In this document: positions 6,292 through 53,867 of the stretch, piece by piece | Layout: each line of letters opens with the position of its first letter | Numbering within the stretch: the first letter of the stretch is position 1 | Virus record (IMG/VR): IMGVR_UViG_2907233695_000001 | Span: 1 to 64,000 of that record | Origin: a virus | Lineage: Duplodnaviria > Caudoviricetes | Reading direction: 5' to 3' (one strand) | DNA: 64,000 bases | Translations under genes and position numbers: made by a program | The notes under the pieces: model-generated | The model's input: the letters and a program-made list of their open reading frames with translations, nothing else | The model's database searches: none | What the model was told of the DNA's origin: nothing

Positions 6292-9200
6292 ATGAAATCG
6301 TCCTTAATGATATCCTTCTTCTTTATGCTTCTGAGCATGATGAAGTGCTTTCAGAATATGATAATTAAATTTATCATTATACTTTTTATACTCATCACAT
6401 TTTGTGTCCACCAAACTGTCTAACATATGCGAACAAACAATAGCTCGAAAATTATGCCAGTGATATTTAATTTTATGTATCATTTATTTATCTCCTTATA
6501 TGTATTCAAATCCTTGATAACCAATATAGAGGCCAAAAAAATATAGCGATAAAACTCGCAGTAACTTCATTCGCACCAAATTCTTCATCTTTTGTATTGT
6601 AAAGAAAATAAATCGCAGATAACACACCAATAAGCAAATATAATAGACTTCCGAAAAGCAGCATGAATCACCTCTTCCTCCTAAACTAAAGTTTCCTCAA
6701 TAGTTACATTTACTTCTATAATTTCCACTGATGGGATTGCTGCTTGTAACCACTTAATATCTTCTTCTTTTATATGAGTCGCAAATTGCTTTCTAAGTTG
6801 AAGATTGACGGAGCAAATATTTGAATAGCAGCTATGCACCCAAAGACTACCCACTTTTGCAATGTAATATTTTTGATTCTCCACCATAGTAGTTTTCACC
6901 CCCTGATAAAATTGTTCCTTCTTTAGATTTCCCAAGTTCCATAGCTCCACTGTCCAACTTTGATATTGCAATCTTTACAGGTAACAACCTTTTCAATGAC
7001 AATGAATCTACCATCTAAGTAATATTCTTTTTCATCAAAGTTTGTTGATTCGCAGTGGTAACATTTTAAAGGCTTGCCATCTTTGGCGATGTAACCCTTA
7101 TCAATCATTTCTTTTACATATTCATCGAATGATTGCAAAGATATCCTCCCTTCCGGTTAATCCTCTTCAAATTTTCGTCTACCTACAATTTCCCATCCAT
7201 CTTCCATCTTAGTTACGAAAATTTCAGTGTAGCCATCATCGACCATATCTTGCACCTTTTCACCAACTCGATAATCATAACTGGTTCCATCTGTTTGTTG
7301 TTCGTAGTCAAACATTTTTTTCAACTCCTATGTATTTTTACTTTTTAAAACTTCTTAGAATATCCATCACATTTGAAAATTTCTCATGGCTTCGCTGCAT
7401 GTATTCGCTTAATTCAATATAGTGTTCAAACAATTTTATGTGCTGATCAATCGGAATCATTGATACTCCACGCTGCTTCATCTCATTTAGATATAGGCCA
7501 TAACTTTGTATCTGCATTTCTTTTGTTGAATCCATTGCTCACCTCATCTTGTTTTCAACGTAAATCCATATACTTTACGTTCATAATAATATCGTTATTA
7601 GTTAGATATCGGTCTCCAGTTTTCTTGGCAAATTTCAATTCGGCAAAATTATCTGTATCACTCAAATCAACTGCATATAAGTGCCAATCTTCATCGAGTT
7701 TATATTCTTCTCTTCCTCGCTTCTCAAGTCGCTGCCATAGATTCAGATTTATCACTCCCCTGATAAAATCTAGTTTTCGACGGATTTTTTTACTTGAACA
7801 TCAATTGTAAGTTGTTCAGCAATCGTATTTGTAATTTCGTCTTTTAGTCTTGATGCCACTACTTTTTCAAAGTTAGTCCAGTAACTCCCCCTATCAATCG
7901 CTCTCTGTACTAAAAGATTCACATAGTTCGTTGTCATCCGTTCAATATCTCCATGATTGATAACTCGTTGAATTTCAGTTTGAACAGTCTCTACGATAAT
8001 TTTTTGAATATCTTCTTTGGTGATTCCAAGTGTATTGTGCATGTGATTTTTTACTGCATTGTACTCTGCTCGAAATTCCTTTGGTGGATTTTTCTTTTGC
8101 TCCATTTTAAAACCTCTTTTCCTTTTGAGATTCAAAGTTTATCTGATAATAATTCATCAATAATCGTTCAACCTCTTGATGTGTATACTTGGAGGCAGCA
8201 TCTCTCGCACTTCTCCATACGTTGTCATTAATTTCTTTTTCCCTCAGATCAAGAACAATCTGATTCATTAATCTTTTTGCATTCTGATTTATTAATCTGT
8301 ATTCTACTGTACTAAGAGGTATTGCATCTCCAGTCTTTTCGTTAATTCCACTACATACTCTACGGTCAAATACTTCAGTTTGATGATAGTATTCGAGCCA
8401 CTTTTTAAATGCATATTCATACTTTGGCTCACTAATGAAATAATTGTAATACTCTAACTCAAACTGTTCTCGATTTATTTGTAATCACCTTCTCCTTGAT
8501 CAATAACCAACTCATATGTATCAATTGAATCATCTAAAATCAATGGTACTCCGTCATATAAACTCATATATCCACTATATCCTTTACTCACTGGCAAGGT
8601 TTTGGCCTGAATTTGTTCAAGAAATGTTGGTAGATAGTTGCTATTGACCTTTGATTTCTTTGAGTCTAGGTTCACTTCGCATACGTTTAAACTCTTCAAG
8701 GAAATTCTCAAATTCTCTCTTTTTGAAGAATCCTCCGTTGTCGCCCCAATGACCATTCTGACCGAATGGCATGATATCGTCTAAGTGATCCATTGTTTAC
8801 ACCTCACGAAAATAAAGTTTTATTTACTGTAAGAGATACCATCTGTATTAATCTCAATCGACTTGCCGCAGTCACACTTAACTTCAAACCCTTCGATTCC
8901 CCATCCACCCACTCCATAATCAGACGAGTAATCTTTAATAATCTCAACTGTGAACTGGTCATCATTGCCACAACCACATACAATTTTCAATATTAAATCT
9001 CCTCATGAAATAGAATTTTATTTACTGTTTAAAATATCAATCGCTGATTGAGGCCATTTTGTCTCAGAATCCCAATTGTCTGTTTCGCTCTGCATTAGAT
9101 AGCAGTCAATATATTCTCCATCAATTTTAAGTTCAGGAGCTGCCCATGTGGATGCCAAATATGTATAATCATCGTAGTCTGGTTTACCATCAATAAAAAT

Positions 9201-9447
9201 TGTCCCACCTGTATACTCCCAATCTCCACTCAAACCAGCAGCAGCAAATTTAACATTTTTCTCTTTGATAAGAGTAGCAGCTTTATTCCAGTCAAATACC
9301 TTCAATTCTTTGCCTCTGTTCATTTCACCCATCATACATGCTGTCATTGTATTCATATGTATGTATCTCCTTTATATTTTATATTTTAATTATAATGAAA
9401 CTGAGATTTTATTTTGCTTGTCTAATTGCCTCTCTTCGCCTTTTACT

Positions 9448-9753
9448 TCATTTCGTTTTTTGTCTTTCCTTATTTTCAATGTATCGTTCAATTTCGCAGC
9501 GAACATATTCTTTAACGTGATAATAGTACTGTTCAAAACCGATACCTTCCATGTTGTGGAGAGCTATTATTAATCCTATACAACCAATTTGAATTAAATC
9601 TTCAATATCTTCATATTTCTCGTATTTACTTGCAACCCACACAACATATCGCAAACTATGTTCAATTAGTTTAGTTTTATTTGACTCAACATCTTGCAAC
9701 ATGATATTTAATTCTTTTGAAGATAGTGGATGTGCCAAGTTCGGACTAATCAT
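9448..9753 (-). CDS. Truncated sporulation-type sigma-70 factor (regions 1.2-2 only)
   Basis: PLSSKE...KLIEHSLRYVVWVASKYE..EDIEDLIQIGCIGLIIAL resembles SigE/SigK region 2; about 101 aa from ATG 9753; no region 4. Confidence 0.75.
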   Translation of the reverse strand: MISPNLAHPLSSKELNIMLQDVESNKTKLIEHSLRYVVWVASKYEKYEDIEDLIQIGCIGLIIALHNMEGIGFEQYYYHVKEYVRCEIERYIENKERQKTK

Positions 9754-10905
9754 TTGTTCACTTCCTTTACAATTGAAATTCATCTTTTATCTATTTATTA
9801 ATTTAACTGTTGTACCATGAAGATTATTTACCTTATTGATTTCCTTTTTGATGATCTGCTTAAATTGATTTTGGTCGTACACATCGTTCTTATGTTGCTT
9901 TCCATAAAATCTAGAATTGCCACAAATAAAAATCCCGTTTTTATCAAAGTCTACAACGTATCGATATTCATCGCCACCAAGAAACTGCTGCGACTTAACA
10001 ACAATCCACTTGCCCTCTTGAACACCTTCTATCCAAACTTCAGATGGATAAAACAATTTATTAGCATAATCTATATAGTATTGCATATGTGCTTCAATAG
10101 TAATATTATCTTCATTGTATAATTTATAATTTGTTTTATTGTTTGTATTCATCTTATCTCCCCACGAAATTAATTTTTTATCTCCAAAAGCCTACAGATA
10201 TATAAATTAAATCAATATCTATTCTATCTGTACTAATTTGAAATCCTAGAATTGGTCTGCTAAGTTTATGAATCATCGCATACGCAGTCCAACCTTTACC
10301 TAAGTACCATTCTTTAGTCATTACAGTGGTCATTGGCTATCTCCATCCTTTCCTATGAAATCTGAGTTTTATTTTGATTTATAATACTCGTTAAAATCCT
10401 TATCTCTACCTTGAAGCCAATCATATTTGATTCCCAAATTTTCTAAAGTTGCATAAATTCCATTTAAAGTTCCTGACCAAAAATACTCCGATTCAATCGT
10501 TCCATTTTCACCACTTATTTCACGATTCCATTTTGCATTTTCGTATAAAATTCTCATGAATTGCTCTGGTGAACAGTTTGAGATGTCCATCATGCCTGTG
10601 TTCATTTAATGGCTCCTTTCCTTTGAAACAGGCATTTAATTTGATCTATATATTAATCGTTTAATGATACCGTCTTCGCACTTAGCAAGCATCTTCCATC
10701 CAACACCTTCTGAGATTACAATAGTTTCTTTCATTTGTCTAACGACCTCCTTTCTTCCTAATGAAACTACACTTTTATCATATTATTAACATCGTAAGAA
10801 CGAGCATTAATGAGTATAAGTGAGATTGAACGAGTTCATTTTGCATACTTTAGAATACATTTCCAAATAATAAATTATCCTATCCACTAGTCCTACCCCT
10901 TAAAA

Positions 10906-10930
10906 TAATATATACTTTCCGTATATATTA
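10906..10930. promoter_or_regulatory. Perfect 10-bp inverted repeat (operator-like) upstream of the plus-strand membrane gene
   Basis: TAATATATAC-tttcc-GTATATATTA. Confidence 0.45.
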
Positions 10931-10964
10931 TAGTGATGACAACTGCATCGTAAGGAAGGTTACT

Positions 10965-11642: not shown

Positions 11643-12071
11643 CTATGCCGACTTTTTATTTTCCGATGAAGCTGCAATTTTATTTTATTTTATTTTATCG
11701 CAATATTATCCATCGTCCATTAATCATTTCTTTATTTACCGCTACAATATTTTGAAATACGACAGGATTCCATGAATGCTCAGACCTTATTGCCAATCCC
11801 TCATCTCTCGCGGCTTTCCAAGCTGTCCAAAAGTCTACCCATTCAACTTCAATTTCCCAATCTTCGGCAAGCAAATAATTGAAATCGCAGACTACCTCTT
11901 TGCCACTTTCCTTGTGCCTAAATATCGCACCGCTATAAAAAATTCGCTCATCACATTCTTTTGAAAATGCCACTTGACCATCTTCCATAACTTTAACTAA
12001 CTCACACAAGTTCATTTGCACACAACTCCTTTATATATGTATCAATTTTATTTTTATCTACTTTGTTTATT

Positions 12072-20411: not shown

Positions 20412-20477
20412 TTTACATCTCCTTTTTCTAATGAAACGTGACTTTTATCGGATTTTTAGTTTCAAAAAACTCAGTAT

Positions 20478-24485: not shown

Positions 24486-27400
24486 TTACGCATAATGCAT
24501 TATGTTTGATTGATCAATAGTTCCCAGTAGCCCAAAAACGACTTCTAATTCACCTTCATCCATACCTAAGACGTTAGCTCCTTCACTACACAAACCAATC
24601 CATTTAATTATAAATTCAATAAATGTTTTTGCATATGTTGCTTCTAAATTAATTGAACAAGATTCGCTCTCTCCGTTTAGTACTCCTGATTCTTCGATCC
24701 CATTATAAAACAAATGCAATACAGGGTACTCATGAGTCTGTATATCTAAATCAGACCAGTGATCAAACGCCATTGCAAAACTCTTTTCTAGTGCTCCGTA
24801 TAGCGACCTTGCTTTTTTCGCTTCGAATGAAACTGGAAGATAAATCCTTTCGATTGTTTCAGTGGTTTTGATTAATTGATAATCCAGTTTGATCAACTCC
24901 TCTCGGCTTGTACAAGTACTTTACCATCTTTTACATTTTACGGTCAATAGTTTTATACTAAATTTATCTTAATAATTTCCATTGTGATTCTATAAAAAAT
25001 CGACTTAAACCGACAATCTCACCATTGTCCCATAGGACATCTCCATACTCGTCCTTTTTGATGATGTAGTTGTGGTATATCCCGTTGACTCCAATGGCTC
25101 TCTGGCCTCGTCTGAGCGTTCTGGCTGTGTCTAAGCCGGATAGTAATGGTTCTATAGGTATCACCTCATTCTTCTCGCCTTGAAGCTTTTTGAACAGTTC
25201 TCTAAACTCATGCAAGGCGCGTTCGTCTTGAAAAATAACTTCCTTGTTTTCATGTAATAACTTCTCAATTTCCTTGATTCTGGACTCTTTTTCTTTATCC
25301 ATCCCATGTTCACCCCATATTCATTGAATTACTTCAAAATTAACCATCCGAACGCTGTTCCAAGCGCAAAAGCAATTACAGCAGTTATGCCGATATTCGT
25401 TAAAATTCGTTCCCGATTCAAATGTTCACCGCCTGTTCATTTTGATCTTTGGGGTTCAAAATTTCGCGCATCCAAATGCCCATCAAAGTCGTACTGCATA
25501 CAACTGTCACAAGGTTTTTCATCCGAAACTATATCGGAATGTTTGCAGTCATTACAAATAGACTCACTCATACCCAAGTACACCCTCTTCATTTTGATGT
25601 CTTATTCTTTTTATCTGACTTTTGGCAGTTGTTACTACACCAAAGGAACCTTGACCAATTACCGTATCCTTACGCCACCATACCCAACCTTGAAGAATAC
25701 CAAGACCGAAGGCTGTAATCAATCCTAGATTGATGAATATAATTTCAGCCATTGCCATGAACACCACCTTTCCTCATGAAACGATAGTTTCGTTACACTA
25801 ATTGAAACTATCCCTTAACTGTTTAACCCATAAGTTGCGCTCATTTGTGCGCTCTACTTCTTTTTCCCACTCTTTAGAATGATATTCGATATCTCTCAGG
25901 CAACGTTCAATATTGCTATTCAACCATTCTTGAGCAGTTTGTTTCTTAACACTCTCAGGGTTGTAGTACCCCTCCATGTTGTCACAGTCCCATTTAATAC
26001 TTTCTTTTAATTGGTCAATACAGAATTGTTTAAGCTTGCCATGATCAGATGTTGGTGCTTGCCAAGCATAAACATCTACCAGCATTTTTGTATATCTATT
26101 TTTCGTTTCAAGCTTTTCTTGAGCATACTTCTTTTTTCTTTTCAGTTCAGACTGATACTCACCTTCTGTTTGTGCTTCGATCTCATCATTACTCATACAC
26201 TGCAATTCCTTTAACCGCTCCCTTGCTTTTTCTATTGCATTCTTACTATATGTACTTGGTTCAAACTCTGGGATTGGTGTGCCTAATGGCTCATCTCTCA
26301 TCATAATTGTAGCACCAAAAGCACGAGCACATTGCATAATATAATCTTTTACATCTGTAATTTTACCTTCGCTTACATCATGAGTATAACCTGTTGGCAT
26401 ATCCTGAACATCTCCTTTAATTTTTTTAGAATGAAACTGTTAGTTTATTTGCTTTTTATACTTTATATAATCAATGATTGTCGCCACTCCAAACATTAAT
26501 GAACCCAAAAACCAGAACCAAGATGTAAATGTATTGGGCACAATATATCCATACAATCCTGCAAAAAGTGCCCCTATAGTACAGACGCATCCAAAGATCA
26601 CTGCTACCAAGCTCATATTCATATTGATCCAATCCCTTTCTTACATTAAATGCAGAATACATTCAAACGGTATCGCCGTAAAGATGATTCCAAGAATAAA
26701 CCAAAGTAAATGTCCATGTGTCATCTTCCACTTGCGTCCATTTCCATATATCACGTTAACTGTTGCAAATAACATTGAAACGATCATCCAAATATAGAAT
26801 ATAATAGTCCACATTTTATGTATTCAACTCCTTCGAAATCGCTATTTTATTTGGATTAATTATACGATGCTTCTGGTTCTTTATCAGGTATCACTTCATC
26901 AGAACTTCCATCTTCATCAATAATTAACTTTGTATAGTTTTGGGTTAATTTCATAAGATAAATTTCAAAATCGTTTAAATGTCTCAATGATTTTAAAGTG
27001 TGTTCCTGATCAAATCCAATATCCCATCCTTCTTTCTTATCCTTTTTCCATCGAGACAAACGAATGGTAAAATTCATTTCCTCATCATGCTCACATTCAA
27101 AATTTAGTACTGCATATTCGAACGAACTCCAACTTTTATCCTCGTTATAGTCAATATTATAGCTAACTTCTACAGGTTCATAACTTACACCTTCATCATA
27201 ATTTATCTCTAAATCATCCGTTTTTACATTCTCCGCTACATATTTCATCCACTTCTCATAAAGTTCCGATACTTTAATTGTCTTGAGTTCATCTTGTGGC
27301 TCAATTAAAGACTTGAAATTGCCAAGAATTTTCTTGTTTTCTAAAGAAGAGTTCTTCAAGACTTCAACTAAGACATTATCCAATTTCACAATATAATCAG

Positions 27401-30400
27401 AGTAATCATAGTTTTCGAGATAAGGAATCATAACAGACTTAACTTGTTTTTCAATAATCTTAGTTACGTCTCCATATGAACCAAACATACTGTCTAGTGC
27501 ATTTTTAATTCCCTTTTCAAGTTGTTCTGAGATTAATGTCTCCACTACTCCATCTGCAAGTTTAGCTGCAATTACGTCTTTAATACTATTTTCTAATGTC
27601 ATATGTATTTATCTCCCTTTTAATTTTCCTAATAAAAATCGTGTTTCATTTCCATTCTTCTAAATAAACATCATCATCAATTTCAGTTATAACAATATTT
27701 TCAGTAAAACCTAATTCATTCTGAATCCATACTCTTGATTCTGGATTGATGTTTTTTAAATATTCAATTAGTTCCCCAACATTCATTTTCTATCTCCCTA
27801 GACAATCGTTGTTTTATGCCGATTTATTTTTTAATTCTTTTAGGTACATTTCTTGATATTCAATTTCGGAAATGGTCTCTACTAACCCCTCGCTGCGTTC
27901 CTGCAAGTTAAAACTCGCCTGATAATAAATATCGTTTTCGCTTGTCACAAAACTCGAAAGTTCTTCTCCTTGAAATCGCATAACTCCATAGATAAAGTTT
28001 ATTTCGCCAAGTTGTCTAAAATCAGATAATCCTTCATCGGTAACAATCTGTCTGTATTGCTCAAGCGTCTCTTTTGCTCTTTTAGTATTGTTTTTCAATT
28101 TACCGTTCTTACCAAATAACTTTTTATTTTCGTCTTTAGTGAGATCATTGAATTCCACCCAAAGTTCATCAGGCACAAGTGCCATTTTGTCAATCTTTTC
28201 ATTTAGCATCGCACTCACTCTTACGAATACGTTGTGCCACAATGGTTTCTGTTTAAAATGTTTCTTAACCGCTTTATCATAGTCTGTCCCACGTGTAATT
28301 TTAAAACACTGATTCATCTATACCTCTCTCCTCTTACCATGTTCTGAAGTGCATTCTATCCTCATCTAGAAAATCTACAAAGTCACTTACTCCGTTTTTT
28401 AGAAATCCAACTTCAAAAATATCAACTAATTTTTCACTTGCTTTACCTAAGATGTTAATTTGACCCTCATTCGAAGCCAAAGTAAAATGATCTTCTTTTT
28501 GAATCAATTCATAATCCAAATCCTTAGTCCATGTGTGAGGGAATAACTCTAGGTTATCCTTTGCGTAAACTCTGTATTTTTGCATATGTACTGCCTCCTT
28601 GTATAATTTCATCTTCTATGTATTTTACGTTGCAAAATCATCTTAACCACATTCACACCTAGTAGAGATATTAGTACGTATAGGGCTGGAGGAGATATTT
28701 TGATTAGTGTGTATAAATACGGATGTTGACTAGCCCATTGCCACATTAACCATTCAGTAACATGGCTGTTTGATCCACTACCACTTAACCAATTATTGAA
28801 CATTTAACGCCTCCTTTAATCTTCGTCAAACTCATTATTAAGATTTGCCAATCCATAATATAGATGATATTTCGCACACGACAAGTCTAATGCTGGATTA
28901 TGTCCAGCTTCTATTACTCGCTTTACAATTTCATATGCCTGCTCAATTAAGCCTGCTGCTTCTCTCTCTGTCACTGTCTCACTCCTTGATAATTGGAAGT
29001 CGATGAGATAATTTTTCCTTAGCCCCATGCAACTGATTCCATTCTTTTTTGTCATAATCCCATCTATGTATTGATTTTGGAACTTTATCAAAGCTCACTT
29101 GAACTTCAGCATATAAGTCCCATGAAGTCCAATTATCAGGAGCAGGAACAGTAATGATTGCATGAGATTCATCTTCCGTTACATAGCAATAATAATCTAC
29201 ATAAAATTCTCTCTTATCTTTTTTATGGCTTTCTTCTTCGGTTGTAATTTTTATATCTCTTGGGTTCTTCAAATGACGGTTTAGCATTGTTATTCACCTC
29301 TTGAAATTAGTCTTTTATTCCTTTACAAATTGGACACGAAATTTAGTTCTATCACTGGCGCATTCGCCTACTACTTTAAAGTAGTATATATCTTCTTCAT
29401 CACCAATTTTAAATCCAAACTTATCAAAATTGCTTGACTTTGATACTCTGAAGATTTTTCCTACATTAGATTTATCCTGTATAACTTCGCAAAGAATCCG
29501 CATATTTCACCCCACCAATTCATCAATTCGACTATATGCTGCTTCGATCATGTCCTCGATTCTCTCTGCTTCCAATCTCCACTGTGCAATTTGTTCTCTC
29601 AACTCTTGAATCTGCCGTTCGTTTTTCATATGTATAACACCTCATATTATGTATTTTAGTTTTATACCAGTACCTTATTACGCTTGCACCAAGCTTCGTA
29701 ATATTTCTTCCAATGCAACTCCTTAAGCTCCTCGCTCACCTGATAAATCTTAGCCTCAGTATCCTTGTACATATCCACTACTTCGCCATTCCTGTAAACA
29801 AAGTTGAGATGATAATATCTCTTAGTAAGAGTGCCATCTTCTGCTCTGGCAATAACCGTTCCCAATTCTACGCAGCGAGTGACTTTATACTCAATCTCTT
29901 CATCGCTTTCACACTTTGATGAGCTTAGTGGACAAATTTGCTGATACTTTTCGATTACCTGCTTTGAAATTTTCAGATTAACCAGTTCCCTTCCTTGTCG
30001 CTAAATTTCTCTTTTAATTTTTTCAACTCATCAATTCTTGCCCAAACCTGTGAATTTTGAAATGCGTCCTCATTCCTGATGCTTGTTAATCTAAGTTGTT
30101 TTAATTGATCCATTCTTTTATCAACATATTCGGTAACTGACATTGGCGTATTCCCCTTGTTTTGGTTTCGTGGCTGTACTGGCCTGTTGTGTTTGTTTTC
30201 GTTCTTCAACTGGTAAAGAGTAATATTTTATGATATCGTCTATGTTGTTAAGCTTCATCTATTTCATCCAATCCATATCCATTTTATATGTATTATTTAT
30301 GTATTTATCTATAGTAATCTTCGCCTAAACGTTCCTTTTCCTTTTTACTTGATTCCGATAGAAACGATATTGTGATGCCAGCCATGAAGAGCCAAATTAG

Positions 30401-35228: not shown

Positions 35229-35612
35229 ATGACTAACAACCACGCAACTAACGAAGAGATGGAACTAATCAAGAAGCACATTATCCTTCCCTTGATGCTG
35301 GATGTAGTGCAGAAAAACATAGAGGATTTGAGCCTCAATCAGTCTACGCTTAAACCACTTTACATTGCTTCCTGCGAAGCCGTGATGAATCTAATCCATC
35401 AGGATATGGCAGAGAATAGAAAGTTGCTTAAACAAGCTAACATAAAGATATTTGATCGAGATCAATCCAAGTATCCTTTGTTCCACTATCCATACATGGT
35501 GCGAGGATACCATTTCACGTTTCAAATGCGCAGAGAGTTAATCAAGAGTGAGATGAGCACGATGCTCCCCAAGTATGTCAATCGCGTTATCCAAATTATG
35601 AATGGGCAATGA
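35229..35612 (+). CDS. YhjD-like protein
   Basis: EMELIKKHIILPLMLDVV...LKPLY...YMVRGY pattern recalls Bacillus YhjD; AAAGGTG RBS; own promoter. Confidence 0.6.
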   Translation: MTNNHATNEEMELIKKHIILPLMLDVVQKNIEDLSLNQSTLKPLYIASCEAVMNLIHQDMAENRKLLKQANIKIFDRDQSKYPLFHYPYMVRGYHFTFQMRRELIKSEMSTMLPKYVNRVIQIMNGQ

Positions 35613-35622
35613 AACCGAGATT

Positions 35623-35817
35623 TTAATGCAACTCAATCTTCTTAAATCTTGGTTTTGCACCATGTTCAGTCTCAACAAATCCGAAGAACATATCCTTTGG
35701 ACGTAGCCAAATGTTGCCACTTTCATTCTGATACACAACATATTCTTCTAGTGTTTCCGTATGTACGCCTTCACCAATGTATGTATAGATTCCACCTTTG
35801 TAATGCTGAAACTTCAT
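35623..35817 (-). CDS. DUF1653 family protein
   Basis: FQHYKGGIY...HTETLEEYVVY...WLRPKDMF...PRF. Confidence 0.85.
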   Translation of the reverse strand: MKFQHYKGGIYTYIGEGVHTETLEEYVVYQNESGNIWLRPKDMFFGFVETEHGAKPRFKKIELH

Positions 35818-36456: not shown

Positions 36457-36560
36457 TATTTATTTAATATTATTTATGTATTTTGCATTTAATTTATGTC
36501 GTTAAAATTACAATTTCATCGTAATTTACGTATTAAAAATTCCTTATAATCATTGATTTT

Positions 36561-37406: not shown

Positions 37407-40102
37407 CTCAAAGTTATTGTTTAATTAAGATAAAATCATGTTTTCGTGGGCTTTTCTGTTTTGAAAAACCCTTATAAATGCTGAATTTTTAACACATGTC
37501 TACCACGGTCAAAACTTTCCTCAAGTTGTCTTTAAACTCATCTAGTGTGTAATAAAAAGCAGTATAATCATTTCCATGGTTCTCAAAATGACACACAACC
37601 CACTTGGGCAAATTTTCAAATTTGTGTTTATGTGCATGGCTCAACCAAGACATCCATGTATTATCATCGGCATTTCCTGAGTGCAACTGCTCATATAGTT
37701 CAACCTGTGTTTCATCTTCAAAATAAACTAATTTAATTTGCTTGTTGTAAGCAGGGAAGTAATCAGAGATGTCAATTTGATTGATAAGATTAAGTGTCTC
37801 GTGAACTAATGCATCTTCTTCTCTTTCGAATTCTCTTCCATCTGCTGTGACAAAAATTTCTTTCTCTTGCATCTGCTCAACTTTTACAGGAACTTGCTTC
37901 ATGATCTTTTCCATTCTATATTCTCCTCCTCTTAATCAGCCACAGCATAAGCATGTTCGCACTCAGCCGTTTCAACTCTATCCTTACACTTGCAACCATT
38001 ACCTTTCTCGCAGTCCCAATACACTCTCCTGTTCCCACAGTCGCAGCGACTATCTACCCCATCCCAACCTCTACAATCTTCACATTTATCATCACCAGCA
38101 AAATCAAACCAAACTTCATTGTTATCCATTGGTTATACATTCTCCTTTGCATATGTATATAAATGTTCGCTTATGTAAATAATTTTAATGCATCGAAGAA
38201 CTTGCTTCCCTTCCGAAGAGTCTGCCATTGGGTGGACTCTTTTTCATGAGGAAATGCTGCTTTTATCAACTTTCAAGTTCATTAAGAAGATATCTAAACT
38301 CGGCTAATTTTGTACAATAAAATTCATATTTCTGTTGCGCTAACTCATATTTATGCTTATGTTCTATTCGTTCTTGATCAAAATTAGCAACACATTTTTC
38401 ATAACTATTAATATATTTTTGTAAATTGGCCTTGGTTGATTCAATGCTCATTTTAGAATCCCTTCCTTATAAATTCTTTATTGCGAATAAAAATTACTGA
38501 ACTTGTCTTCGATTGATTTAAGCTTATTCATAACAATTCGCAAGTCCTCTTCGATTTCTTCTTTAAACCTCTCAATACTACCGTCATAAAAGTATAAATC
38601 GGCAGATAAATCAGTTGCTTTACATTTGAGTCTATGGTACTCATGCAAATATTCAATGGCCTGATTTTTCATATTTCACCCTTTGAAATCCAAGTTTATT
38701 GTAAATCACTTTTGTTACAATACTCATGACAACTTTCTGCCTCTGTTAAGAAGTCGCCTATTGGTTTATTAAATTCCCCACAATAAATCATGTATATTTT
38801 TTCTTTGACATCACTACTTCTAACCTCGCACCATCCATCTGTATGAATACATCTAGTGCATGATTTTTCATTGTCCCAATTAGGGAATAACTCTTTAACT
38901 TTCGAAACCAATTCCTCCCAATCTTTTCCCACCTCGGCGCACTCCATTCGAAATACAGATTTATTTGCTTAAATACTCAGTATATCTATTTGAATTTGCA
39001 GCAAAATCATACAATACATCGACAAACTTGTCTGCGTTTTGATTGCCGCTATCGTAAGCAGCGTTCACAATTCTCCATAGATCAATCGCATCTTCTAAAG
39101 ACATTGTAAGTGTGAATTCTGGCTTAACTGGCTTCGTTGTTTCATTTAACTCCATGCATCATTCTCCCATTGAAATAAGATTTTTATTTGCCTTTTCATT
39201 CTGGTTGCATAGAAATAAAGTAATTATCTAAATCATCAATATGTTCCATTTCCTCTAAGTTACCATTGTCTTTTGCAGAATAATAACCTCGCTCCAATAA
39301 TTTACGAAGTAGATGATAATCCTTTTCGGTAATTTCAATTTGTAATGTTTTCATTTTTAACCTCCCTATGAAAGAAGAATTTTAATTTATTTTCTTTCGA
39401 TAACATTTGCGGCATATGTTTTAGGGTAAGCCCCAATTTTACCTAGAGCTTTTAAAATAATGTCCTTTTCAGTGGAATTTTCTTCAATTTCAACCTCTAC
39501 AACTTTAGATGCTTTCATGAATGGATTTGGTACATAAACACCAAAGTAAAAATAAACATCATACGTTTTTATTTTCATCATCCTCCAAATACTTCTCCAA
39601 TGCCCACTGAAGATGCTGCGACTTAGTTTGGTACTCCACTCTACTCATACGAATGTCATGGAGCACCTTCTTTATGTCCTTACCCTGTCTCATTATTTCA
39701 TTAACCATATCATCAATCTCATTTTTGTTTATGTATTCAATTACTTTGTTTATGTTTATCAACACCAGTTCTCAACTTGAAGTGTTCTTCACCTTTGACT
39801 TCCTGTTCAGTGGATCGTCTACATCTTAAGCAGCGGTTCAAATGTTCGCTTGCATATAGTTCAACTTCGTGGCCTTCAAATGCACAGTGGATACAGGTCT
39901 CTTTAGTTATGGCTTCTCAACTCCCTCAATTGCTCAAGTGCCTTCAGTTGATCTTCGAGCGAGTATTTGCCGAGGAGAGTTGCAAGCTCAGATAGAACAT
40001 CATCAAATTTTTCTTCTGGGATTGAATGAATCAGTTCTTTAAAATTCGATAATGACTCTTTCGGTTCCATGTTATCAACTCCCGTTGAAAGCATTGTTTG
40101 AT

Positions 40103-40900: not shown

Positions 40901-42025
40901 GTTATTTCTCCTTTTTTTATGTATTAAAGGTTTATTTATCTTCGATTCCGTCAATTTCTATATAATATAACCTTGATAACAAACTTTTGGGGTCTTTACC
41001 TCCTACTTTTCCGGTTAAAATCTACCTTTCATTTCCAATAAATGATTGGATTAGCCCAAAAATGAATCATTTGTCTAATTGATTTATTTATCACTTCTTT
41101 TGTTTCTTCAGTTAGATTGTCTTGCTTAAGCAAATTCAAGAAATAATCCATTTCCTCTTTAAAATTATCCCAAGTTTTTAATTTAACTTCTTCCAATTCC
41201 ATAGGTGTAGTAATTAATTGTGATGGCAATGCTATATCTTGTTCCAATAACTTCACCTCGATTCCAATCAAATTTGCCTTTCAAAGGTATTTATCAATGA
41301 ACCATTGACATCCAAAAGAGAACATGGCTATGGAAACTATTAAAACTTTTTCAACTCTAAATTGAGTTTGTTCCACTATTCCATAAGAGATTCCAAACAT
41401 TAAGGATGACCAATTCCACTCTGCAAACAAATTTACATTCTTAGTCATTCTTTCCTCCGTATTCATTTCATCTATTGTAATTCCAATTTATATAATTAAT
41501 TTCTAAATGTCCTAACGATAAAGTCCAATCAAGACAAGAATCGATTCCTTTTCTTGCTCCATTCGTACTAATCCCCCATTGTGCTTCCGTGTTGGCATCA
41601 GAATCATCTGGATATAGCCGTTTATTTTCTTTTCTGATTCCACGAAACCACGATATATTTAAAGTTCTTGTGTTCTTTTTCCACCACAATTCAAAAATTC
41701 TCATTTTCATCTCCCTCATAAAATTCGCTTTTCAACGGTTTTTCAACTCGTCAATTTCATTCTGCTGGTCTTCGATTATCCTCTTTAACCTATCAATGAA
41801 TAACTCTTTACCGACCATCAATTCATTTACTCTGTTCGTCTGTGATTTAAGACGCTTAATCTCTTCTTCGTACCACATGTCATTATTCTTTACTTTTCCA
41901 AGTGTATAATTTACTTTATCTGCTGCAAGAGATGCGATATGATCCATCTGTTCATTACTTAACGTAACATTAAAACTTAAACCCTTCAGAGTACATCACC
42001 TCACTTTCCTCAAGAAAGTTCCATT

Positions 42026-42298
42026 TTATCCAATTACTCGATACCTCGTATAGTGCTCATGAACTTCTGGCTCTAGAATTTTTTCATCGACCATTCGATT
42101 GATCAAGCGCTCTCCCTGTTTATAGCCTACTCTACAAGTCCTTTGTAATAACGATACAGAAGCGTATGCCTCATTCTCCGGATGGCTCTCTTTGGCTTTT
42201 ATTACAGCAGCTACAGCAAGAGGATATTTTTCTTCTTCCTGTTGTCTAAGAAATGCTTCCCATCTTTCATTTTCTTCTTTTTTTGGCTTCTTAGCCAT
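42026..42298 (-). CDS. Stand-alone FtsK/SpoIIIE gamma (winged-helix) domain protein
   Basis: ASVSLLQRTCRVGYKQGERLINRMVDEKILEP matches the gamma consensus ASxSxLQRxxRIGYxRAxRLIxxxExxGIV; 90 aa. Confidence 0.75.
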   Translation of the reverse strand: MAKKPKKEENERWEAFLRQQEEEKYPLAVAAVIKAKESHPENEAYASVSLLQRTCRVGYKQGERLINRMVDEKILEPEVHEHYTRYRVIG

Positions 42299-42329
42299 TA
42301 AGTTTATGCCTCCTCATAAAAGTCCAATT

Positions 42330-42716
42330 TCAAACCCATTCCATCAACTCTCGAACAGTAGGAATATCGGCCTCAAGAAAATCATACATCCAAAGTTCAT
42401 CTCTCTTAATCCAAGCTAAAGCTTCATGTTCGTAAAGTACTGGTTTACCCAATTCGATATCGCACATATATGTAAGCAATCGAATGTTGTCGTGTTGAAC
42501 ATCTTTTACCATATCACCGACTTTTACTTCGCATCCAATCTCTTCGATTACTTCTCTCCGCAAAGCTTCTTCAGGGGTTTCGTCTTCTTCAACTTTCCCA
42601 CCAATAAACTCCCATTTGTTATATTTATATCGCTTACCACATAAAAATCTGTCAGTATCGCTGTTATAGATTACTGCTCCGACAACTAATTGCATTTTGT
42701 CACTTCCTAATATCAT
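42330..42716 (-). CDS. Nudix hydrolase (MutT/NudG-like)
   Basis: WEFIGGKVEEDETPEEALRREVIEEIG Nudix box. Confidence 0.9.
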   Translation of the reverse strand: MILGSDKMQLVVGAVIYNSDTDRFLCGKRYKYNKWEFIGGKVEEDETPEEALRREVIEEIGCEVKVGDMVKDVQHDNIRLLTYMCDIELGKPVLYEHEALAWIKRDELWMYDFLEADIPTVRELMEWV

Positions 42717-43563: not shown

Positions 43564-44567
43564 TCAATAAGCATTCCTTTGCAATCTCATCGAATTACGT
43601 GTTGCTTCCAATACCTGTATAACAACATCTAATGATTTAATGTCATCGAATTTCATAACCACATGTGTATCAAAACTGTCTAATGTTTGTCCTTTTGACT
43701 CCTCCCACTCTGATCCAATTTCTCTTGGTTGCGACAGTATAAAAGCAACACCTTCTGTACGCCCATTATCATCTTGGATGTCTCCGACAAATATATCTCC
43801 ATAACCAAAATGCAAACACTTTATATTGTCCCTAGTGACGATTGGCATCTTTGCCCTCCTTATAAAAACCAAATTTCCTTAGCTTTTAATTTATTTCGCA
43901 GAGTCCTCAAACAGCTTAATTTCCTCTAGTATTTCTTCAAAAGCTACCCTTGCCAGATCGATTGGGTCATCCATTCTCCAACTCCTTTGAGTGATAGTTG
44001 CAATGTAATTTAATTTCCGTTTTGTCAGTTCAACTAACTCCCAAGCCTTCTTCTCACTATCAATTAGACTGTAAATTTCCTTTTTGTCTAATCTCACATA
44101 TCCATCATAATCAGCGTATTGCAAAGCAAGGTCTTTTTCGTTATCGTTCATTGTGCTATCCCCTCCTAAAATTTCCCCTTGAAAACGTCATTTTATTGGA
44201 AATATGCTTTAGAAAAACCCTTATATATCAAGGGTTTTTCAACTGGTACTTAACCTTAATCCTGCCCCAATCCCAATCAGATGAGAAATCAACATATTTA
44301 ATCTTCTCAGAGTTCTCTCTGATCCATTTATGCATTAAATCAATTGCTTCGTTGTGTGTTTTCCCTTCAAATGTTTTAAATAGCATTATGTATTTTGATC
44401 ATAACTCCTCAGTCCTTGTAAATTGATTGGAAGATAATATTCTGGGTTAGTATCCTGCTTTTTAATTTCCTTCTGATGCTGCCATTTTGATTTATTATTG
44501 AAATACGGTTTATATTTACTTTTTTCACTTTTAAATATTGTGGTCAACTTATCAACCTCCAAAAAGT

Positions 44568-46762: not shown

Positions 46763-47108
46763 TTGTCATCTCCTGTTGTGTATATTGGTGAAAATGCTCT
46801 CTAGAACTTTCTGTTTGGATTATTCTAGAGAGCGTGGATCGAACGTTGTTATATGTATTATTCAGTTTTATTCTGCAAGCGTGAAATCAACGTAATACTC
46901 TTTGCCCTCTTCAAATTGTTCTTGCGCTTTCTCGTTATCAACGCTCATCTGAATTTGACCAAATGGCGTATATTTCCAAAATTGCTCATTCTCTTCTGAT
47001 CCAGAAATTACAGCCTCTAAGCGTACACTATTTCCTTCTTTAAAAGCGCACTTGAATTTTGCTCTCACCATGTTTCTTCACCTCACTTTTTCATTTAAAA
47101 TAATTCTT

Positions 47109-48080
47109 TTATAGGGATTTCGTGTACTCATACATTGCTTGCAGAGTTTTTTCATCCTTAACATCTTTATACTTAGCAGTCTTAAACTTATCCGTCAATC
47201 CTTTAGCGAGTTCTTTCTTCTGATCCTGAGACAGAGTTGCAATAATGGTATCGATTTTAGAAATCAATTCATCAACTTTATTGCCTTCAGGATTACTCAA
47301 ACTTTCTGCTTCTGCATTTAGAGTCTCATCGAAGTTTTTAATTTCTTCTTTGGTAATCTTTCTGCCAGTTTGAGCCTTTGCAATAGCTGCTTTCCAATGA
47401 TTGTAATTTGGCATTTCTACGATATCGCCAATGTTAAATGTTTTAGTACGATCCTTTTCAACTTTTCCAAAAGACTTTCCATCTTTAGTATAAGTTTGAA
47501 CAACAACATCGAAATCAAATTTACTACCCTTTGGAAGATTCGGCTTCACTCCAACTTTAACACTAATTTGATTACCTTGAGCGTCTGTACGGCTCTCAGT
47601 TTCATCACTGGCTTCAGCAACATAGGATAGATTTTTACCCATCTTCACATATGTTAGAAGCTTTGCAAAGAATCTGTCATAGTGCAGACCCATTACACCG
47701 TATTCCTTAAACGAAAGCCCTTCGCCTTCAAGAAGACGATTAGATTTTCTAGCACGTTGTTCAACCACTTTTAGAGCAGCATGTTTCATGTTCTCATGAT
47801 AGCGAGTAGCACTATCAATATTGATCGTTTCTACTTGATTGAACAGTTCTTCATCACTTTCAAAATCGTCTAGATCATCATTCATTTCTTTAAAGACAAG
47901 AGTATTGGACTCCATCAAAATGTTGTCATTATACTCTTCGTAAAACTTAGTCCCACCATCACTATCAAACAATAGTTGATTAGGGAAGGAAAGACCAGTT
48001 GGAGTCTTCCCTGTCGCAGATTCACCGTACCAAAGAAATGTTACACCTTCACGTTTTTTCTCGCGTTTTTGCAATGCCAT
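47109..48080 (-). CDS. AAA_24/Sak4-like P-loop ATPase (SPbeta YorG-like)
   Basis: WYGESATGKT, TINIDS, FDFDVV, EKDRT. Confidence 0.75.
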   Translation of the reverse strand: MALQKREKKREGVTFLWYGESATGKTPTGLSFPNQLLFDSDGGTKFYEEYNDNILMESNTLVFKEMNDDLDDFESDEELFNQVETINIDSATRYHENMKHAALKVVEQRARKSNRLLEGEGLSFKEYGVMGLHYDRFFAKLLTYVKMGKNLSYVAEASDETESRTDAQGNQISVKVGVKPNLPKGSKFDFDVVVQTYTKDGKSFGKVEKDRTKTFNIGDIVEMPNYNHWKAAIAKAQTGRKITKEEIKNFDETLNAEAESLSNPEGNKVDELISKIDTIIATLSQDQKKELAKGLTDKFKTAKYKDVKDEKTLQAMYEYTKSL

Positions 48081-49421: not shown

Positions 49422-52400
49422 TGAAACATGAAATTCATTTGGTTATGATCTTAACGATATCTCCGCAATGCAACTTTACCAATCAATTGAAGATTGCTGC
49501 TTTTACATGGTAATTTAAAACCATACCAATCATCAGCACCTATGTATGATCCTCTAGGACAGACATAAACTAAATAATAATTACTTCTAAAAAGCCAATA
49601 TCTCCACGTGTCGATTGTAATCAGATAATTATCTATATAAAACTGATGCGTTTCTCCTGCTGGAGTGTTGAACAATAAATATCAACTCCCAAGGAAATCT
49701 CAATTTCTTTGGTTTTAATCTATATGTATGTAGCAATCGCCATTTAGCCATTTATTTATCTTCAGAAGTCTCTCGTATGTAAAAAAAGGATTATGTTCAT
49801 TGTACCACTCATCTAAATCAAATTCCCACTTTTGACTATTGCAATTCTTACATGATGGAATACAATTACTCAGATCGTTCGCACCATTATCATCAACATG
49901 TTCTTTATGTAGATCAGTCCATTTGAACTCGCCAGCATATTTTATAAAGTGTTCACTTATATGCAAACCACAATATGCACACGAATCATCAAAGTACAAC
50001 TTGCATTTAGTCCATTCTTCTTTGCTAATTATATGTTTCTTTGCTTTTCTCCTTTCACGGCTCTTTTTATGTGCCAGTTTACCTCTTTCTGATTGCTGCC
50101 ATTCTTTATGTCTTCCATCCTTCAATCTACGTTTAGAACTTAATCGAGTAGATACTACTTGATTTTCAGGTCTATTCGCGTTATGTTTTTCTTTTAACTT
50201 TTTGTACTGTTCTGGATTCTCCTTTTGCCAAAGTTTCGATTTTTTAATAGTACATTCCTTGCAATAAGCATTATATCCATCCATTTTGTTTTGTTTATTT
50301 TTATAATAATATTCGCTGTTACAAGGAAACCATTGTAAACATGTATTACAAAGTTTATATTCCACACCTTCTACTAGTTTATGACACTCCTCATATTTCA
50401 GCGGCTTTTTCTTTTCACTTATAATCCATCACACCTTTCCCGATAAATCTTCGAATTTATCCCCAAATAAAGTATCCAATTCCGATTCCAACACCCAAGC
50501 AAAGCAGCGGTAAAACAATACAATAAAACAGGATAGCGTTTGCCATATCGTTCAAAAGACTATTCAACGTTTTCCTCCTTACACCTGAGCAACTTTTGCG
50601 TCTTTTTCAAAAAACTTTGGATCATAATTTTCCAAAACTTCCTTAACTGCCTCTTCGTAATTCCACTTATTAATAATCAAAGTTCTTTCTTTATTTGTAA
50701 AGACAAACATTTCTTAAATCACCTCTTCACTATGTATATACTTAGGCAGTTCCTCTAACTCTTCACATCTTAAACACTCGATATAAGGCTCAAAATGAAT
50801 ATCAACATTGACTCTCCCTTTGCCATGTCCACATTTCAAACATTTAAAAGTTATTTTAATCATTCTTCAATTATCTCTACTGTAATTCGTACCTTCATTG
50901 TCTTTACGCTTTGCAGTAGGTCACACAGTGTATCTGCTGGATAAATCCCTCGTTCTGCATCTTCCTTTGTATCAAAGATGCCCAAATCATCGTAATTTCC
51001 ACCAAGCCAACCCTCGATAATCAATATATCACCTCACGAAAGATTCATTTTATCGAACCTGAGTAATTGTGACATCAAACGACACATCGAACTCACCATT
51101 ATCATAATAGCCATTAAAAATTTCAATTAAGTGGCATTTTGAGCACTTTGCGTACCCCAACGAATCAATGTATCCATTCGATATATGATCATCAGAGCAG
51201 GAAGTTCGGCTATGATTAAGTAAACTTAAAATAATATCTCTATATTGTTCCAGACCATCAATTTTTTCTTTAACAATTTTTCTTTTCTTCTTCATTTCTT
51301 GTTCTTTTATTGCGTTCTTTCTTGATTCCAACTCATTTTGCAGCTTCTCGATTTCTTCAATCGACATCGAATTAATGTCCTTTTCCATCCTTACCTCCCG
51401 TTGAAAGATGACTCTGTTTTCGCTCTACATTTTAAGCAAAAGGTGTAACCATCAAAATTCAATTTTTCTGCATCGTGCTTTGCAAATCTCATCAAAATAA
51501 ACGCTATACCACCATCTATTAATCCTTTTGGAGTTTAATTTGAAATGATGCTGAATATACTGTTCTTTTCTTATATTGTTGAACACGAAATCTCTTACAG
51601 TGATTTTCAATCCAACTTCAATAGGAATTACTCGATATGCGTTATCCATTCACACCATCCACCATCCTGTTGAAAGACTCGATTTATCTTAAATTTCTTA
51701 ACTTCTCCAGAGTTTCAATCATAATCATTTTTGCCTCTTTATATTTCAATGGACTAAAATCTCTCGATGATTCGTCGCTATAGTTCCACAAAGCTCTGCA
51801 CATTATTGTAGCCAAATCCCAATCATCATCCATATTTATATATGAAGCAGGAGGCTCTAACTCCTTAAATTTATTTAACTCTTCGTCAGACGGAAGTTCT
51901 CCATAATATTCGATTTCAAACCACATGCTAATCACTCCTGTTAAAAGAATTGTTTTAACGTAAAATTTCAAAATACTTACCATCAATAACTGGTTCAAAC
52001 TCTCTACCGTTATCATCTATAATACAGAATTCTCCGTCTTCATTCATATGCATTTCATAGACTCTACCTGCGGTTGTCATTCGATAACCTAGAATATTAA
52101 GATTTCTAATACAAATGACTTTCATACCCCTATTACCACCTTATGAAAGTATTATTTCAAGCGAAAACAAATTGACTTGTTACAGGATTATAGTTCCTAA
52201 AGTAGCCAGATTTGCATCAAGTCCAGTCATTTTTCTGTCTTGCTCATGACAAACTTTCTTTAATTCCTCAATTAATCTCTGCGCTGTTAAGGCACGATCC
52301 TTTAAATGTTGCTGCATCAGTTCTTTCATTCCGACATCTCCTCACGAAATATTTGTTTTATCTGTAGTATCGGCAGATTCTTTGAAAATTACATCGAAAT

Positions 52401-53867
52401 CCTTGCTTGATAGTTTCTTCAATAATTTGATGTGTTCTTTTGTCCAACCGTTTACTTCAAGCAATTCTGCTTCAAGAAGATGGTCAACCGCTTCCTTAAC
52501 CAAATCCTCAACCTTGACATCCATCTATATATCACCCTCTACTTATCTTCGAATTTCTTAATAATCTCTTCTGCTTCTTCTTCAGTACCGACCTTTTCAA
52601 CGAACATAGCCCAATTTTCTTCAATAAATTCTTTAATCATTACCTTTTCGTAAAACTCCAACTCATTCATATCTGAATCTCTCCCTTAATAAAATTATCT
52701 TTTCATTACCTAATCTTCGATTCTTGACCAAGAACAATTAATCTTCTCATGTAACCATTTATCATAATGGTCTTCGATCAAAGACTCTGCCTCTTGTTCA
52801 CTCAAACCGTCAAAATCTTCATCATCAATCTCATATATATCTTCTCGTTTACTTCCTGCATATCCAGTGCTAACACTAAAAATTTAGCCATATCTCAATC
52901 CCAACCCCTCTGTTATTTGAATGAACTTAACCTTTCATCACTCTTTACATTCATCGCAAACTTCACGGTGGTGTCCACAATCCAAACAAGGTTTTCCAAC
53001 ATTCCCACAGTGAAAATGGTAACTAGTAACTGTCCCATCGTTCTCCATGCGATTTAGAGAAGCATGTTCAAAAGGGATTTCATAATTACATTTCCCACAT
53101 CTGTTTTCCATTTTAATTACACACCCCTTCGAAATATCTATTTTATTCGCTTATAATAGTCTTGATTCGTCTCAACTGATCCAACGTCAAATCAATCTTT
53201 CCTAAAGTATCAAATACTTTTCTTATCTCCCATTGCAATTTGCTAACTTCCTCTTCGTCTAGAATTTCCTGCTTAGAAAAGTACAACTGCCAATCTGCAA
53301 TATACCCTCCCATTTTCTGCTGCTTGTCTTCGATTCTAAACTTAAGTGGCCTTAAACCATCGCCCACCTCAAAATACTTCCTGCCAACCTTAGATATGAT
53401 ATCCTCTCTAATATATACTTCTTTTCGACCTCTGGCATTATTCCCAACGGCCTTCAGATATACTTTGTCTCCAACTTGCACCTTTATCACTTCCTCATGA
53501 AATTTCGGTTTCATCATCCACAACCTTATCACCAGAAACAGATGATGAAACCGAACAACAACTTTAGATTTCTTCTAGTGCTCCAGCACCCTGTAATTCG
53601 TTTACTCTAATTGGAATAGCATTGCCCTTTAGCCCAACCCCATCATCACAGATCATCTCTAAATTCACTTGCTGTCTTGTGCCTAGCAATAGGCTAGTCA
53701 ATTCATTTTGTGCGCCATCAATGCCCACAGTCCAAAATTTCATTCCATTACCACTAGTAGTTACGGTTATAAATCCAACTTCGAAGGATAATTCTCTTCC
53801 ATCAACTTTGATCGACGATAATTTCTTTTGCATTCTGTTGGCCTCCTAGAATAAAGTAACCATTTCG
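49422..53867 (-). other. Early accessory gene array with junction motifs
   Basis: Motif copies at 49422, 49693, 51037, 51402, 51671, 51942, 52144, 52345, 52690, 53130, 53498, 53852; promoter-like TTGACT-18-TATATT near 53902-53931 heads the array. Confidence 0.75.
49715..50365 (-). CDS. HNH endonuclease
   Basis: CAYCG...LHKEHV...NDLSNCIPSCKNCNSQK; N-terminal Zn ribbons. Confidence 0.85.
   Translation of the reverse strand: MEYKLCNTCLQWFPCNSEYYYKNKQNKMDGYNAYCKECTIKKSKLWQKENPEQYKKLKEKHNANRPENQVVSTRLSSKRRLKDGRHKEWQQSERGKLAHKKSRERRKAKKHIISKEEWTKCKLYFDDSCAYCGLHISEHFIKYAGEFKWTDLHKEHVDDNGANDLSNCIPSCKNCNSQKWEFDLDEWYNEHNPFFTYERLLKINKWLNGDCYIHID

Follow-up and report, generated by a model that had tools for sequence, protein, structure and literature searches.

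A repeated 16-bp dyad with a variable centre marks gene replacement boundaries in SPbeta-like phages

The first 64,000 bases of the phage contig C13, referred to here as the window, carry at many of their gene junctions a 16-bp imperfect palindrome, YRAAA-N6-TTTYR, and the question raised by this locus is what such a dyad, with its recurring arms and ever-changing 6-bp centre, is doing there. The initial annotation of the window had listed about 40 such junction palindromes and proposed that they belong to an integron-like system of gene capture. We found instead that the motif is an element common to the SPbeta-like group of phages and that its copies mark the boundaries at which genes are replaced among them. 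The explanation that we favor, at a probability of roughly one-half, is that the sites are heterospecific crossover points of the tyrosine-recombinase type, whose centres would encode addresses.

Occurrence of the dyad and gene replacement at its copies

C13 (164,118 bp; 35% GC) is part of a 7.56-Mb assembly with a GC content of 51%. It encodes a DnaE-type polymerase, a class I ribonucleotide reductase, ThyX, a DnaB-like helicase, homing endonucleases, an AgrB/LytTR locus, a DndB-like gene followed by an MrpR-family gene, TubZ, an FtsK-like ATPase, two PF00589 recombinases and, at the right end, a large serine recombinase; in gene content and layout, C13 is an SPbeta-like temperate phage. The closest homologues of its MrpR-like and AAA_24 proteins were found in Paenibacillus genomes and run assemblies, while the closest catalogued phage is Alicyclobacillus phage KKP_3916 (labels L014 to L016; 60% identity in DnaE). 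The Paenibacillus relatives, labeled L021, L022 and L036 to L038, were supplied by protein searches; a search of viral and genome contig collections with the MrpR-like protein as the query returned no relatives.

In the window, 31 strict matches to the motif were counted, against a mean of 6.9 (standard deviation, 2.35; largest value, 16) in dinucleotide shuffles, which confirms that the motif noted earlier is enriched; in the counts for C13 and other phages, the reversed pattern served as the control. Over all of C13, strict sites number 51, a density of 3.1 per 10 kb that is seven times the 0.44 per 10 kb found genome-wide, and 12 sites match the reversed pattern, 4 of them intergenic. The enrichment is specific to the 6-bp spacing, with 51 copies on C13 versus 4 to 21 at each other spacing from 0 to 14, and the same restriction was found in SPbeta and KKP_3916. 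Most of the strict C13 sites (42 of 51) are intergenic, non-coding DNA making up about 19% of the contig by crude gene calls. No two of the 51 16-mers are the same, and all 51 centres are distinct. The copy numbers in other phages were as follows.

SPbeta: 42 copies (TAAAA-N6-TTTTA); reversed control, 9
KKP_3916: 18 copies; reversed control, 5
Tsamsa: 29 copies; reversed control, 5
Geobacillus E3: 42 copies; reversed control, 10
Psychrobacillus Perkons: 52 copies; reversed control, 6
SPO1 (unrelated): 1 copy; reversed control, 0
Staphylococcus phage K (unrelated): 5 copies; reversed control, 5

Since SPO1 and K are AT rich and yet show no enrichment, the motif cannot be put down to base composition alone; it is also present in the Paenibacillus relatives. 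In SPbeta, the dyad extends weakly outward (TYT-N3-TAAAA-N6-TTTTA-N3-ARA), and its copies are found between co-directional, convergent and divergent genes, before and after terminators, and adjoining promoters that contain the SPbeta element SPBRE; this placement in all gene contexts points to a role at the level of DNA rather than the transcript. No published description of the motif was found in the literature searched, and an undescribed element of about 50 copies in SPbeta would be worth knowing even if it consisted of regulator binding sites.

Two SPbeta regions (81.5 to 101.5 kb and 110 to 134.4 kb) were compared with Goe13, Goe11, phi3T and SPbetaL1, L3 and L4. In the first of these, 28 of 74 blastn alignment ends lay at most 20 nt from a site centre (2.4% expected), and 10 of the 12 sites coincided with a breakpoint. 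Taking all pairs together, breakpoints were found at 87 of 97 motif junctions (90%) versus 150 of 293 other junctions (51%), with an odds ratio of 8.3, the effect size being what counts here because the pooling of related genomes inflates P values; among non-motif junctions with gaps of at least 16 nt, 115 of 197 had a breakpoint. The exact 16-mer, centre included, is kept at sites whose left, right or both flanks are unrelated, and such islands with replaced flanks are exemplified by TAAAAGATGCATTTTA in Goe11 and L4 and by TAAAAAGACTGTTTTA in phi3T and L4. Identity stopped 0 to 2 nt beyond the 16-mer on 122 of 186 non-homologous sides, a figure obtained with an ungapped homology criterion that overcounts non-homology, although the examples checked by eye were clear. 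Finally, the order of the centres is the same in five phages throughout both regions, though only 38 to 75% of the DNA aligns.

The motif sites mark gene replacement boundaries in SPbeta-like phages, and the suggestion that they delimit exchangeable genes is borne out by the homology breakpoints that fall on them. Gene capture, on the other hand, is not what the comparison revealed: alleles are replaced while positions stay fixed. In a close Paenibacillus relative, the accessory array punctuated by sites includes a Gad2-family (anti-Gabija) gene (L037:20733-20975), and Gad1/Gad2 are found in the corresponding array of the SPbetaL phages, so that anti-defence genes are among the exchanged units. 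How whole genes are cleanly replaced in mosaic phage genomes is an old open question, and sequences have so far given little support to the classic 'linker' idea of how modules evolve; a countable border element is now seen in a model phage family that includes SPbeta, studied for fifty years.

Shared centres and the sites of the window

Closer relatives, from the window's own lineage, were found with the AAA_24 protein (47109 to 48080; 81%, 79% and 76% identity), and 21 kb around each was taken for comparison. Between 17 window sites and 75 sites in five relatives, whose core genes have 49 to 81% protein identity to those of the window phage, there were five oriented centre matches, where 0.46 to 0.59 were expected (P between 5e-5 and 2.5e-4). 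They fall at four addresses.

TAGATA: window 53130 and L036:3721; spacer and right arm identical; upstream gene homologous, at only 48% protein identity
AGATAA: window 52690, L036:3877 (spacer and right arm identical) and L022:11926 (16-mer identical); no flank homology by tblastx, both flanks differing in all three phages
AGCGAA: window 41719 and L037:14779; whole 16-mer identical; neither flank homologous by tblastx
TTCTTC (gene orientation): window 39369 and L037:19776; no flank homology by tblastx

The order of the shared centres is the same in every genome, with the AAA_24 gene between the second and third addresses, and the relatives also share centres among themselves, again in consistent order. 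At three of the four shared addresses, the search revealed no homology in the flanks; the centres behave as addresses conserved beyond detectable gene homology. Because divergence this deep makes neutral survival of a 6-mer unlikely, the centres would seem to be maintained by selection or homogenized by exchange. Between TAGATA and AGATAA, where the window has a 57-codon gene, L036 has a stretch of about 140 bp (L036:3737-3876) that contains inverted repeats and is apparently non-coding.

Thirty of the 40 palindromes listed in the initial annotation are strict matches. The other 10 have one mismatch and belong to a class that is not enriched (192 matches versus 208 for the reversed-pattern control); they are plausible by position only, without statistical support, and are given below as candidates.

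7764..7779: strict, TAAAA-TCTAGT-TTTCG on the plus strand; upstream stop is the TAG inside the spacer
8807..8822: strict; first three bases are the upstream stop (gene orientation), next start 13 nt on
9396..9411: strict; intergenic, 39 nt after a stop and 39 nt before a start
9774..9789: strict; stop codon at offset 0
10165..10180: strict; stop codon at offset 0
10356..10371: strict; stop codon at offset 0
10624..10639: candidate, one mismatch; tight junction geometry
10762..10777: strict; divergent intergenic region
11667..11682: candidate, one mismatch; between convergent genes
20432..20447: strict; 20 nt before a start codon
23518..23533: strict; both arms of the TAAAA type
25777..25792: strict; stop codon 8 nt upstream
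26432..26447: candidate, one mismatch
26834..26849: strict
27633..27648: strict; arm supplies the upstream stop codon (TGA)
29302..29317: strict; stop codon at offset 0
35610..35625: strict; stop codon at offset 0
36503..36518: strict
37431..37446: strict
38250..38265: candidate, one mismatch
39171..39186: strict
39369..39384: strict; shared centre TTCTTC
40086..40101: candidate, one mismatch
41016..41031: strict; stop codon at offset 0
41268..41283: candidate, one mismatch
41719..41734: strict; shared centre AGCGAA, stop codon at offset 0
42013..42028: candidate, one mismatch
42317..42332: strict; stop codon at offset 0
43863..43878: candidate, one mismatch
44180..44195: strict; downstream of a terminator-like hairpin
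47096..47111: strict; stop codon of the conserved AAA_24 gene, with a site at the same place in relatives and related spacers (GAATTA / GAAATA / GAAAGA)
51037..51052: strict; stop codon at offset 0
51671..51686: candidate, one mismatch
51942..51957: strict; stop codon at offset 0
52144..52159: strict
52345..52360: strict; 15 nt before a start codon
52690..52705: strict; shared centre AGATAA
53130..53145: strict; shared centre TAGATA
53498..53513: strict; GTG start 16 nt on, with ribosome-binding site
53852..53867: candidate, one mismatch
57393..58361, minus strand: MrpR-like master-repressor homologue with a tyrosine-recombinase fold (Pfam PF22822 and PF22823)

Strict sites are absent, as the initial annotation had stated for the core blocks, from the dnaE block (1 to 7.7 kb), nrd/thyX (12 to 20 kb), dnaB/primase (30 to 35.5 kb) and agr/MrpR (54 to 64 kb), and one is present at 26 of 104 junctions with enough room (about a quarter). 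They occur in co-directional, convergent and divergent intergenic regions and in early, late and structural regions, with many small genes without assigned function between them. The symmetrized profile is a dyad with weak outer arms, the conserved unit measuring 16 bp and at most about 28 bp. Regarding the arms, 34 of 43 intergenic C13 sites pair TAAAA with YGAAA (21.5 expected; p = 1e-4), a combination that, by analogy, would fit two different subunits such as XerC and XerD. The polarity of these hetero-arm sites does not alternate along the array, and that of the sites relative to gene direction (22 versus 12 by hand count) is not significant. SPbeta sites are nearly all TAAAA/TAAAA, and half-site preference seems to vary by lineage. 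A reading of the motif as a sigma-70-type promoter array was rejected, with 79 promoter-like matches versus 78 in shuffles and a dyad that is orientation-free.

Read in gene orientation, the profile is aa-T(A/G)AAA-N6-TTT(C/T)(A/G)-t. In the early minus-strand array, the GG of the ribosome-binding site follows 3 to 4 nt past the site. At 19 of about 45 intergenic C13 sites, 14 of them in the window, the first three site bases (TAA/TGA) are the stop codon of the upstream open reading frame. In the late plus-strand half of C13, the site stands just past the upstream stop and 86 to 198 nt before the next start, usually with a terminator hairpin between site and start. Of the unit of stop codon, site and ribosome-binding site that had been proposed, the overlap with the stop codon stands at these 19 sites, while the proximity to the ribosome-binding site is lost in the late region; the late-half sites being so far from the next start, the site is not tied to the ribosome-binding site, and the tight order seen in the window reflects compact junctions.

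That same tight order in the early array is what would speak for a motif acting in RNA, either as an mRNA hairpin or protein site that couples termination to the next initiation or as a cut mark for an RNase, and a weakly conserved C at -4 mirrors the GG at +19/+20, such that an extended stem could cover the ribosome-binding site. However, 40-nt windows around the sites fold at a mean of -3.0 kcal/mol versus -2.5 kcal/mol for shuffles, a central hairpin is predicted in just 15 of 43 sites, the commonest form (TAAAA...TTTCA) sets A opposite C in the stem, and no Rfam family matched. Moreover, the sites of the late region and of SPbeta are far from ribosome-binding sites, sites are also found between convergent and divergent genes, and the conservation of spacers by address would be left unexplained. 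We therefore give an RNA-level role very little credence.

Crossover sites and the alternatives

On the explanation that we favor, the 16-bp dyads would be read by a paired protein and would work as heterospecific crossover points arranged in a fixed order. The two arms of 5 to 6 bp would be the common recognition element, and the 6-bp centre, different at each junction, would act as the address, much like the overlap region in the core site of a tyrosine recombinase. When two related phages meet in one cell, through co-infection or as phage and prophage, exchange would be confined to copies whose centres match; whatever lies between two addresses, one gene or several, would be replaced, and gene order would remain undisturbed. 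Short arms, address-conserved centres and islands of identity at replacement boundaries together resemble a heterospecific set of tyrosine-recombinase core sites, and a comparison with the generic core, inverted arms around a 6- to 8-bp overlap region, upholds the likeness in architecture that had been noted earlier, namely, dyads at the level of DNA with a 5-6-5 geometry. The address-by-address conservation of the centres fits a requirement for matching overlaps, and exchange would then be catalysed at the site itself. The initial annotation had assumed the opposite, that a recombinase tolerates a freely variable centre; the conserved centres suggest that matching is needed.

Which enzyme might read the sites is a separate matter. 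The earlier statement that no intact recombinase is visible holds for the window, but outside it, two tyrosine recombinases keep alignable catalytic residues.

92095-93147, minus strand: YopP-like recombinase, PF00589, 31% identity to YopP
124851-125873, plus strand: YomM-like recombinase, PF00589, 26% identity to YomM; its stop codon falls in a site (125871)

In alignments with YopP for the former and with XerA (PDB 4a8e) for the latter, both proteins retain the first Arg, the H-x-x-R box, the His or Trp, and the Tyr. As in SPbeta, the large serine recombinase located at the end of the contig probably serves as the phage integrase, which leaves the YopP and YomM homologues without an assigned role. 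Judging from sequence, the YopP-like protein, the YomM-like protein and host XerC/XerD are the candidate enzymes. On the whole, we tentatively suggest, giving this fuller version somewhat less than even odds, that some 20 to 50 heterospecific recombination sites form a natural array in the SPbeta-like phages of Bacillales, and that a conserved recombinase would cut these sites at the edges of the centre and join strands between identical centres only. If true, the centres would be a genome-wide address code by which single accessory genes, anti-defence genes included, are swapped at high frequency without the order being scrambled; should a recombinase indeed read the sites, nature would have its own equivalent of the engineered heterospecific lox sets, along with a mechanism for the fast turnover of accessory and anti-defence genes.

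Several points weigh against crossover at dedicated sites. Binding, cleavage and recombination at the sites are predictions for any protein, and only 5 to 6 bp per arm is strongly conserved, whereas the arms of Cre, Xer and Flp sites are 11 to 13 bp long. SPbeta YopP and YomM read HSFK and HLFK at the H-x-x-R box, with Lys for the second Arg, and may thus be inactive, though it is in SPbeta that the exchange pattern is clearest. The hetero-arm bias of C13 is absent from SPbeta, KKP_3916 and L021/L022. As for the statistics, the junction counts pool related genomes, half of the non-motif junctions are breakpoints as well, and in the window's own lineage the case rests on five shared spacers. 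Selection for intact genes, combined with microhomology between arms, could place breakpoints at the sites with no dedicated enzyme.

The last point leads to the main alternative, possible but less likely than crossover sites, in which the dyad is the binding site of a phage or host protein with a regulatory or architectural function (silencing, roadblock, bending or nucleoid organization) and exchange is a by-product of selection and of arm microhomology between segments that are otherwise unrelated. There are about 50 intergenic copies per genome, the 5-6-5 dyad geometry is typical of dimeric regulators, the lysogeny module, expected to be expressed in the prophage, is free of copies, the stoperators of L5 and the SPBRE sites of MrpR are precedents, and breakpoints at non-motif junctions are frequent. 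Such a protein would, however, be expected to leave the spacer free, and the spacers are conserved by address even where flank homology was not detected and core proteins are only about 50% identical. In addition, the sites are placed without regard to promoters, terminators or gene direction, and the one global regulator that has been mapped, SPbeta MrpR, does not peak on them.

MrpR itself deserves separate consideration, since the motif might be the operator of the window's MrpR-like repressor (57393 to 58361), that is, an expanded version of SPBRE. MrpR of SPbeta has a tyrosine-recombinase fold and binds SPBRE, and its ten ChAP-seq peaks are found only at SPBRE (PMC10516654). The element to which it binds is repeated, with inverted ATACA/TGTAT arms, and a 5-6-5 geometry would suit a protein of this kind. 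Still, the SPBRE sequence that we derived from the ten published target promoters, ACAAATACAAAWAATATGTATA, lies inside sigma-A-like promoters and is unrelated to the dyad, and KKP_3916 has a separate SPBRE-like promoter motif in addition to the dyad. Given that SPbeta carries 42 copies of the motif and that the peaks are solely at SPBRE, we dropped the operator idea as highly improbable, if a shade less so than a role in RNA; the MrpR-like protein is probably not the reader of the sites. The motif in KKP_3916, TTGACAAATGCAACAATAAGTGA, occurs in about 25 copies upstream of genes (record positions 57702, 97113 and 98636, for example), and its 5' half matches the SPbeta SPBRE (GACAAATACAA); it is probably this phage's version of the MrpR-type promoter/operator, in greatly increased numbers.

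A true integron-like system, with an integrase that captures circular promoterless cassettes at attI and with the 16-mers as attC equivalents, is the least probable of the readings considered and close to refuted. It would explain why sites are located at the 3' ends of genes, often over the stop codon, as attC is, and why many small genes of unknown function lie between them. Nevertheless, no unit of IntI-type integrase, attI and Pc heads the arrays; among the large open reading frames of the window, Pfam gave the MrpR-like protein as the only recombinase-type match, and the PF00589 genes are located at 92 kb and 125 kb of the contig, away from the head of any array. The sites measure 16 to 28 bp and are unfolded, in contrast to the folded, 57- to 141-bp attC, and they are spread genome-wide, the structural region included. 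Relatives show replacement by position with conserved order rather than reshuffling, and a self-comparison of C13 revealed no duplicated modules or cassettes. What the two systems have in common, besides 3'-end sites marking mostly small exchangeable accessory genes, is a suspected tyrosine recombinase.

The closest described system is, by analogy, that of the pdif/dif modules of Acinetobacter plasmids, dif-like sites of XerC/XerD with 11-bp arms, whose modules are found in varied backbones (Mindlin et al., 2019; PMC6449649). There, too, many short dyads with a 6-bp centre flank accessory gene modules, and the recombinase was inferred from site anatomy. Unlike the pdif modules, which move between plasmids, the genes considered here are replaced at fixed, ordered phage addresses; the sites have 5 to 6 conserved bp per arm plus weak outer positions, their centres are unique within a genome, and the hetero-arm sites on C13 do not alternate in polarity as would the oppositely oriented XerC-XerD sites flanking a pdif module. 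The likeness of the C13 arms to what we take to be the Bacillus dif sequence, used here in place of the host's own dif, is weak.

The logic proposed here, common arms with differing spacers and each site pairing only with its twin, is that of the engineered heterospecific lox and FRT sets, laboratory constructs with 13-bp arms and 8-bp spacers whose variants recombine only with themselves; we know of no natural array of about 50 heterospecific sites. Among repeated phage elements, SPBRE is likewise an intergenic dyad of the same phage group read by a protein with a recombinase fold, but it differs in sequence, has about 10 copies and is bound by MrpR, whereas the dyad described here gave no ChAP-seq peak. 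The stoperators of cluster A mycobacteriophages, bound by the L5 repressor and reportedly described by Brown et al. in 1997, also place tens of copies of a short site in the short intergenic gaps of a temperate phage genome; they are said to be asymmetric, to follow the direction of transcription and to be invariant in sequence, in contrast to orientation-free dyads with variable centres conserved by address. Similarly, the PeSL elements of T4-type phages (reportedly, Arbiol et al. in 2010), each combining an early promoter with a stem-loop and said to act via homologous recombination, likewise recur between genes on either side of small accessory genes and have been proposed to drive modular shuffling; the dyad has neither a promoter signal nor a stable stem.

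Other features of the contig

C13 starts and ends with GTTGGCC (1-8 and 164111-164118) and consists of phage DNA only, with the serine recombinase at 162666-164090. Its ends may reflect an assembly break at the attachment site or an extrachromosomal phage in the sequenced culture. A homologue of YonO, the SPbeta-type phage RNA polymerase, was not found with the SPbeta protein as the query. Where the two transcription directions of C13 switch, a cluster at 95669-101768 encodes a TubZ-like tubulin, a TrbL/VirB6-like membrane protein and a 769-amino-acid FtsK/SpoIIIE ATPase.

Free-standing homing endonuclease genes are located in the window at four positions, with dnaE, thyX/nrd, helicase/primase genes and the DndB-like gene as neighbours; two are of the LAGLIDADG type, one is of the HNH type and one is I-HmuI/NUMOD-like.

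4950-5894: homing endonuclease gene
14486-15169: homing endonuclease gene
32097-33056: homing endonuclease gene
59926-61311: homing endonuclease gene

Directly downstream of the MrpR-like repressor gene, the window contains an agr-like locus (54025-57330), in place of which the lysogeny region of SPbeta has an arbitrium system. In L037, AgrB also adjoins MrpR, while in L022 the locus is missing between the same conserved genes.

54318-54800, minus strand: LytTR protein
56682-57200, minus strand: AgrB

Lastly, the 8-mer AATACATA is present in 63 copies on C13, against about 16 expected (window 7336, 24477 and 28624, for example). It is almost always on the coding strand, mostly within genes and often in the form aaaAATACATAg, and its excess may stem from codon or dipeptide bias or may represent a signal.

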